NCBI RefSeq assembly: GCF_003790525.1 | Contig: NZ_CP033635.1 | DNA from: Escherichia coli | Lineage (GTDB): Bacteria; Pseudomonadota; Gammaproteobacteria; Enterobacterales; Enterobacteriaceae | DNA: 64,000 nt | Strand: one strand, 5' to 3' | In this document: positions 31,161 to 31,340 of the stretch, piece by piece | How the letters are laid out: each line of letters opens with the position of its first letter | How positions within the stretch are numbered: the first letter of the stretch is position 1 | Made by a program: the position numbers and the translations under genes | Notes under the pieces: model-generated | Databases searched by the model: none | The model's input: only the letters and a program-made list of their open reading frames with translations | What the model was told of the DNA's origin: nothing

Positions 31161-31190
31161 CAAAAAAAAGCCCGCTAATTAGGCGGGCTG
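31161..31190 (-). terminator. trp attenuator (leader terminator)
   Basis: Minus strand agcccgcctaattagcgggcttttttttg just upstream of trpE. Confidence 0.9.
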
Positions 31191-31231
31191 GGTATCTGAT
31201 TGCTTTACGCATGGTGAATACACTGCCCGTT

Positions 31232-31276
31232 TCAGGAAGTGCGCCACCAACCTTTCAGTACGAAAATTGCTTTCAT
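31232..31276 (-). CDS. trpL: trp leader peptide
   Basis: Minus strand atgaaagcaattttcgtactgaaaggttggtggcgcacttcctga = [14 protein letters not shown] with tandem Trp codons. Confidence 0.95.
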
Positions 31277-31299
31277 TGTCGATACCCTTTTTACGTGAA

Positions 31300-31340
31300 C
31301 TTGCGTACTAGTTAACTAGTTCGATGATTAATTGTCAACA
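31300..31340 (-). promoter_or_regulatory. trp promoter and TrpR operator
   Basis: Minus strand TTGACAATTAATCATCGAACTAGTTAACTAGTACGCAAG: -35 TTGACA, operator palindrome ACTAGTTAACTAGT, -10 TTAACT. Confidence 0.95.

Follow-up and report, generated by a model that had tools for sequence, protein, structure and literature searches.

An ordinary trp operon control region of Escherichia coli with a natural minority allele at the tip of its attenuator hairpin

The window analysed here is a stretch of 64,000 nucleotides of Escherichia coli DNA, in the middle of which the segment 31161-31340 separates trpE, read on the minus strand, from rnm, read on the plus strand. The elements of this segment lie on the minus strand and, numbered from the presumed start of the trp mRNA, extend from -38 to +142, so that the complete trp control element is bracketed. 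The original prediction had placed a canonical TTGACA, a TrpR operator palindrome, a 14-codon leader with tandem Trp codons and an attenuator hairpin with its U-tract at this locus, and all of them were located within 31161-31340 on the minus strand. The features are listed below in the order in which the minus strand is read, after the divergent gene.

31414-32295, plus strand: rnm
31338..31333, minus strand: -35 hexamer TTGACA of the trp promoter, a perfect consensus read directly from the sequence and the same in K-12
31315..31310, minus strand: -10 hexamer TTAACT of the trp promoter, the same in K-12, separated from the -35 hexamer by a spacer of 17 bp
31323..31304, minus strand: TrpR operator, the 20-bp palindrome CGAACTAGTTAACTAGTACG, at -21 to -2, overlapping the -10 hexamer and the same in K-12
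31302, minus strand: presumed +1 of the trp mRNA, placed from knowledge of the K-12 transcript with its 162-nt leader
31289..31285, minus strand: Shine-Dalgarno sequence AAGGG of trpL, 9-13 nt upstream of the AUG
31276..31232, minus strand: trpL open reading frame, ATG AAA GCA ATT TTC GTA CTG AAA GGT TGG TGG CGC ACT TCC TGA
31249..31244, minus strand: tandem Trp codons of trpL
31209..31251, minus strand: leader regions 1:2, the pause or anti-antiterminator hairpin, at +52..+94, folding at -17.5 kcal/mol and the same in K-12
31184..31229, minus strand: leader regions 2:3, the antiterminator, at +74..+119, folding at -15.6 kcal/mol and the same in K-12
31162..31189, minus strand: attenuator, the 3:4 terminator hairpin with its U-tract, located by a terminator scan and by folding, and inside the Rfam Trp_leader match
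31189..31169, minus strand: the terminator hairpin alone, at +114..+134, with seven pairs (six of them G-C) and a 7-nt loop
31177, minus strand: G126->T (U in the RNA), the sole leader difference from K-12, at the apex of the terminator hairpin
31169..31162, minus strand: run of eight T (the U-tract), at +134..+141, 22 nt before the trpE ATG
29578-31140, minus strand: trpE, 520 aa, with its ATG at 31140
27983-29578, minus strand: trpD, 531 aa
26621-27982, minus strand: trpC, 453 aa
25416-26609, minus strand: trpB, 397 aa
24610-25416, minus strand: trpA, 268 aa

The operator CGAACTAGTTAACTAGTACG is self-complementary at 18 of its 20 positions and holds two CTAG motifs, and the two hexamers together with a CTAG-bearing palindrome overlapping the -10 element are the make-up of a TrpR-repressed sigma-70 promoter. 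Binding of TrpR to the trp operator is established (PMC13178558); the repressor gene, trpR, is not within the 64 kb analysed and is expected at another chromosomal site. A generic promoter scan did not call the trp promoter because it accepts only -10 hexamers whose second base is A, where TTAACT has a T, and the missed call is thus a limit of the scan and no defect of the promoter. TTAACT is the natural -10 sequence of the trp promoter, a known non-consensus feature common to K-12. For the start of transcription we relied on the established layout of the K-12 trp transcript, in which the leader is 162 nt long and the AUG of trpL is at +27; with +1 at 31302, the distances to the ATG codons of trpL (31276) and trpE (31140) are exactly as in K-12. 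The plus strand carries a promoter-like site of its own, TTCAGA-17-TATGAT at 31347-31375, divergent from the trp promoter and followed after 39 nt by the TTG with which rnm starts (31414). This site may serve as the rnm promoter; the mean number of such sites in shuffled sequences was 0.8, so that one is about as expected.

The trpL frame comprises 14 sense codons and a stop, the UGG UGG pair being codons 10-11, and its product is annotated in genomes of identical sequence as WP_001700591.1. The leader can adopt the alternative pairings 1:2, 2:3 and 3:4. Region 3 (+114..+119) is used in both the 2:3 and the 3:4 pairing, and because both need it, antiterminator and terminator are mutually exclusive. 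The 3:4 terminator folds at -13.0 kcal/mol (ViennaRNA, +108..+141), and a pattern scan found it independently, with the same seven pairs, six G-C pairs, 7-nt loop and T-run. Beyond the leader, the structural genes trpEDCBA (24610..31140) are all of full length with no internal stop, their proteins showing 1-15 amino-acid differences from those of K-12 and 0-1 from those of E. coli SMS-3-5.

The likeness to known leaders goes far beyond what chance would give, and nothing spoke against the identification. The Rfam model RF00513 (Trp_leader) matched 31162-31255 on the minus strand with a score of 89.4 bits (E 2.5e-19; gathering score 41), over model positions 1-100 of 100 and with both consensus helices present. 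The model score, the Shine-Dalgarno sequence ahead of a leader frame with tandem Trp codons, the alternative pairings and a GC-rich stem followed by a U-tract are the features of an attenuator of the RF00513 type. Relative to the consensus of the model, the window has a linker that is 5 nt shorter, as have other E. coli, and an apical terminator pair, C.U, that is marked as non-standard. A match on the plus strand to another Rfam family, Hrs1 (20 bits, E 0.55; gathering score 56.4), was weak and was rejected; it is the terminator hairpin read backwards.

Alignment to the K-12 MG1655 chromosome (NC_000913.3) gave 320 identities in 321 positions across the regulatory region and 179 in 180 within 31161-31340. 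The K-12 control region (approximately 1,322,947-1,323,150) has the same hexamers, operator, Shine-Dalgarno sequence, trpL, regions 1-3, terminator stem and U-tract at the same spacings; the window does not depart from it anywhere in promoter, operator, trpL or regions 1-3, and in the 162-nt leader it does so at a single position. Two more differences lie outside 31161-31340, both inside trpE. The original prediction had named mismatches in the operator or leader of such an alignment as what would count against it: the operator and trpL have none, and the leader transcript has one, G126->T. When complete E. coli genomes were searched with a 321-nt query spanning the region, 5,421 of 5,426 gave a match; identity was at least 99% in 4,559 matching records and 95-99% in 866, and among the genomes listed the matches carry the annotations trpL, Trp leader region, trpE and rnm. 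The trp control region of the window is therefore an already known, ordinary element. The earlier statement that promoter, operator, leader peptide and attenuator are intact holds as far as sequence can show, the first three being those of K-12 and the last having kept its terminator stem, U-tract and pairings. The single leader difference is no argument against intactness because it is a natural minority allele (72 of 5,426 genomes) in that part of the hairpin which varies most.

The start site, the binding of TrpR and the response to tryptophan we infer from the near-identity of the region to the experimentally defined one of K-12, and the mode of control would then be the combination of repression and attenuation described previously (PMC13178558, PMC3831192). 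Tryptophan-loaded TrpR would occupy the operator overlapping the -10 hexamer and block initiation. On transcripts that escape repression, the fate of the leader would depend on the ribosome translating trpL. When charged tRNA-Trp is present, the ribosome would pass the two UGG codons and reach the trpL stop, covering region 2; with region 2 covered, the 3:4 terminator (-13.0 kcal/mol) would form and RNA polymerase would stop in the U-tract, approximately 140 nt from the start. Under tryptophan starvation, the ribosome would stall at UGG UGG, the 2:3 antiterminator (-15.6 kcal/mol) would form and transcription would enter trpE. If the leader is not translated at all, the 1:2 hairpin (-17.5 kcal/mol) is expected to form and the 3:4 hairpin to terminate. 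A switch between terminator and antiterminator hairpins that answers to tryptophan is shared with the trp leader of Bacillus subtilis (PMC13178558). There, however, the sensor is the RNA-binding protein TRAP and not a ribosome on a leader peptide, and the TrpR operator is lacking, whereas the window is of the E. coli type. In E. coli the terminated trp leader RNA of approximately 140 nt has in addition been described as a trans-acting sRNA, rnTrpL (PMC12612679); an rnTrpL acting in trans is also known from S. meliloti. The window encodes the same RNA of approximately 140 nt, from +1 to the U-tract, as E. coli rnTrpL, with one base, U126, different.

The surroundings of the element are those of an E. 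coli chromosome. Over 22728-64000 the window differs from SMS-3-5 (NC_010498.1) by 4 mismatches in 41,273 bases without a gap, an identity of 99.99%, and this near-perfect collinearity places the origin of the window in a close relative of SMS-3-5. The SMS-3-5 genome and 71 other complete genomes contain the 321-nt query in identical form, U126 included. We conclude that 31161-31340 is almost certainly the native chromosomal control region of the trpLEDCBA operon of an SMS-3-5-like lineage. A trp promoter and leader might also be met as a cloned cassette of the kind used in expression vectors, and nine of the 5,460 places matched by the query do lie on plasmids; in the window, however, the segment is flanked by rnm and the full trpEDCBA set and is collinear with the SMS-3-5 chromosome over 41 kb, on which ground an engineered cassette was rejected, and we give it next to no weight against the native locus. 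The earlier view of an unperturbed core of the window also holds, given the collinearity of 22728-64000. "Unperturbed" holds relative to the SMS-3-5 lineage, not to K-12, which is without the islet at 35923-37463. The use of the element for validating the strand and coordinate reading was likewise justified as an internal control, the strand, which had been left unstated, being the minus strand. The result can be taken as a control: ordinary E. coli chromosome makes up the middle of the window, the coordinates are reliable and the trp operon, near a prophage junction, is undisturbed.

The only four differences from SMS-3-5 are at 22731, 22734, 24879 and 55733. The first two adjoin the prophage junction in ompW, and that at 24879 falls inside the trpA coding region; TrpA of the window and of SMS-3-5 differ by one amino acid. 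The junction between prophage and chromosome, at approximately 22728-22735, is inside the 3' end of ompW, of which the last approximately 126 nt are native; SMS-3-5 has an intact ompW, whereas in the window the prophage occupies this site. Positions 1-22727 form the right end of a lambdoid prophage with tape measure, gpJ and tail-fibre genes and with IS1414 and IS66-family interruptions. This part has no counterpart in K-12 NC_000913.3 1,290,000-1,339,999, which spans this locus, or in the SMS-3-5 sequence surrounding it, and its best match is to E. coli TUM1886 (79% coverage, 99.7% identity).

On the other side of the trp operon, between rluB and btuR/cobO, lies the 1.5-kb islet 35923-37463, with a GC content of 36.5% against approximately 50% in its flanks; K-12 does not carry it, and 561 of 5,426 complete E. 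coli genomes do. Searches of Pfam, PADLOC, NCBIfam and PHROGs gave no hit for either of its two open reading frames, and for the 333-aa product a PDB sequence search gave a best E of 0.21. That product (36091-37092, plus strand) starts with MIRYSGIFLSLLMLSGC, a lipoprotein-type signal with a lipobox; the second frame (37103-37411, plus strand) encodes 102 aa, and both are annotated only as "hypothetical protein".

The one leader difference from K-12 sits at the top of the 3:4 helix. Both the K-12 structure and the Rfam consensus join position 126 to position 121, with A127 bulged. In the window the partners are C121.U126, the apical pair is lost and the helix is without its eighth consensus pair. 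By ViennaRNA over +108..+141, the hairpin of the window folds at -13.0 kcal/mol with seven pairs and a 7-nt loop, and that of K-12, with G126 and the C121:G126 pair, at -14.0 kcal/mol with eight pairs, a 4-nt loop and the bulge, so that the hairpin of the window is predicted to be less stable by approximately 1 kcal/mol. The seven-pair GC-rich stem, the U-tract, region 2 and the leader frame are unchanged by G126->T.

To find carriers of the allele, genomes were queried with 41 nt centred on position 126, matches being required to be identical at the centre. Of the 5,426 complete E. coli genomes, 72 (1.3%) contain the T126 41-mer, once in each and always on the chromosome, SMS-3-5 among them, and their sources include humans, chickens, cattle, sheep, dogs, a cat, mink, a pangolin, rivers and sewage. 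The corresponding 41-mer with the K-12 base had an exact match in 4,659 records. T126 is thus a natural minority allele of E. coli. A single-base difference within a GC-rich hairpin could also have arisen by an error of sequencing or assembly in a leader otherwise like that of K-12, but the same 41 nt recur in 72 independently assembled complete genomes and the flanking 41 kb are 99.99% identical to SMS-3-5, which has the same base. With this occurrence and collinearity an error at 31177 is hardly credible, and we rejected it.

How far the apex of the hairpin is constrained was judged by scanning a single genome of each species for a pattern made up of the Trp-codon box, the arms GCCCGC and GCGGGC and four T; the arms being fixed by the pattern itself, the scan is uninformative on conservation of the stem. 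The 34 species recovered belong to Escherichia, Citrobacter, Enterobacter, Pseudocitrobacter, Leclercia, Raoultella, Erwinia, Pantoea and Pectobacterium. Between the fixed arms we found 22 different apex sequences of 5-9 nt, many of which cannot form the 121:126 pair, and within Escherichia both +123 and +126 vary. Since 22 apex sequences occur in 34 species, the apex of the hairpin is weakly constrained, and the apical pair 121:126 is not a defining feature of the family. Computed energies of the natural hairpins ranged from -14.4 to -12.4 kcal/mol. The window, at -12.4 kcal/mol, is within this range but tied for the weakest of the variants computed; the other is the apex CTCATAA, which occurs in E. 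whittamii and in a cryptic Escherichia clade and likewise has an open loop.

These data bear on whether G126->U could be a functional regulatory variant, in the form either of a weaker attenuator that raises basal or starvation read-through into trpE or of an rnTrpL with altered structure or targeting. The predicted fold does change in the direction such a variant would need, from -14.0 to -13.0 kcal/mol and from a 4-nt loop with a bulge to a loop of 7 nt, but the energy change is just 1 kcal/mol, and the seven-pair stem adjoining the U-tract, and the U-tract itself, are intact. When region 1 is masked to imitate a ribosome held up on the Trp codons, the 2:3 pairing probability rises from 0.03 in K-12 to 0.17 in the window and that of the terminator falls from 0.97 to 0.83, values that are indicative only, the probabilities being those of an equilibrium and attenuation being kinetic. 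A small quantitative effect on read-through is thus conceivable. With nothing masked, or with regions 1-2 masked, as for a leader free of ribosomes or with a ribosome at the stop codon, the terminator probability is 1.000 for both alleles. A consequence in trans may be considered, given that rnTrpL of E. coli is reported to act on dnaA and other mRNAs (PMC12612679), and the restriction of the allele to 1.3% of genomes would fit a variant with an effect. On the other hand, the apex varies freely across species and inside Escherichia, the Escherichia apex CTCATAA has an equally open loop and the same energy, and the allele persists in 72 genomes from many hosts. We therefore regard a functional regulatory variant as unlikely. 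That U126 would measurably loosen the attenuator, or alter the folding or the target pairing of the released rnTrpL, we hold to be quite improbable; if it did, the SMS-3-5-like lineage would have a slightly shifted set-point of tryptophan synthesis or of rnTrpL-dependent regulation. Most likely G126->U is neutral or nearly so and a marker of its lineage. As such, the +126 allele is a minor marker and at most a natural test of how important the attenuator apex is.

The CTCATAA apex was also considered as the source of the remaining E. coli hairpins that are neither of the K-12 nor of the T126 type, and was rejected in this role, having no match in the complete E. coli genomes; it is therefore an apex of the cryptic clades and E. 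whittamii. The sampled non-K-12 leaders of E. coli instead carry scattered single changes. In strain 550 the change is A123G in the terminator loop, in APEC E16002 it is G93A and in AH62 it is C87A, while E. coli 24A16CRGN010 combines T104C with a synonymous A35G in trpL. In E. coli 042 and AH62 the U-tract consists of seven T rather than eight.
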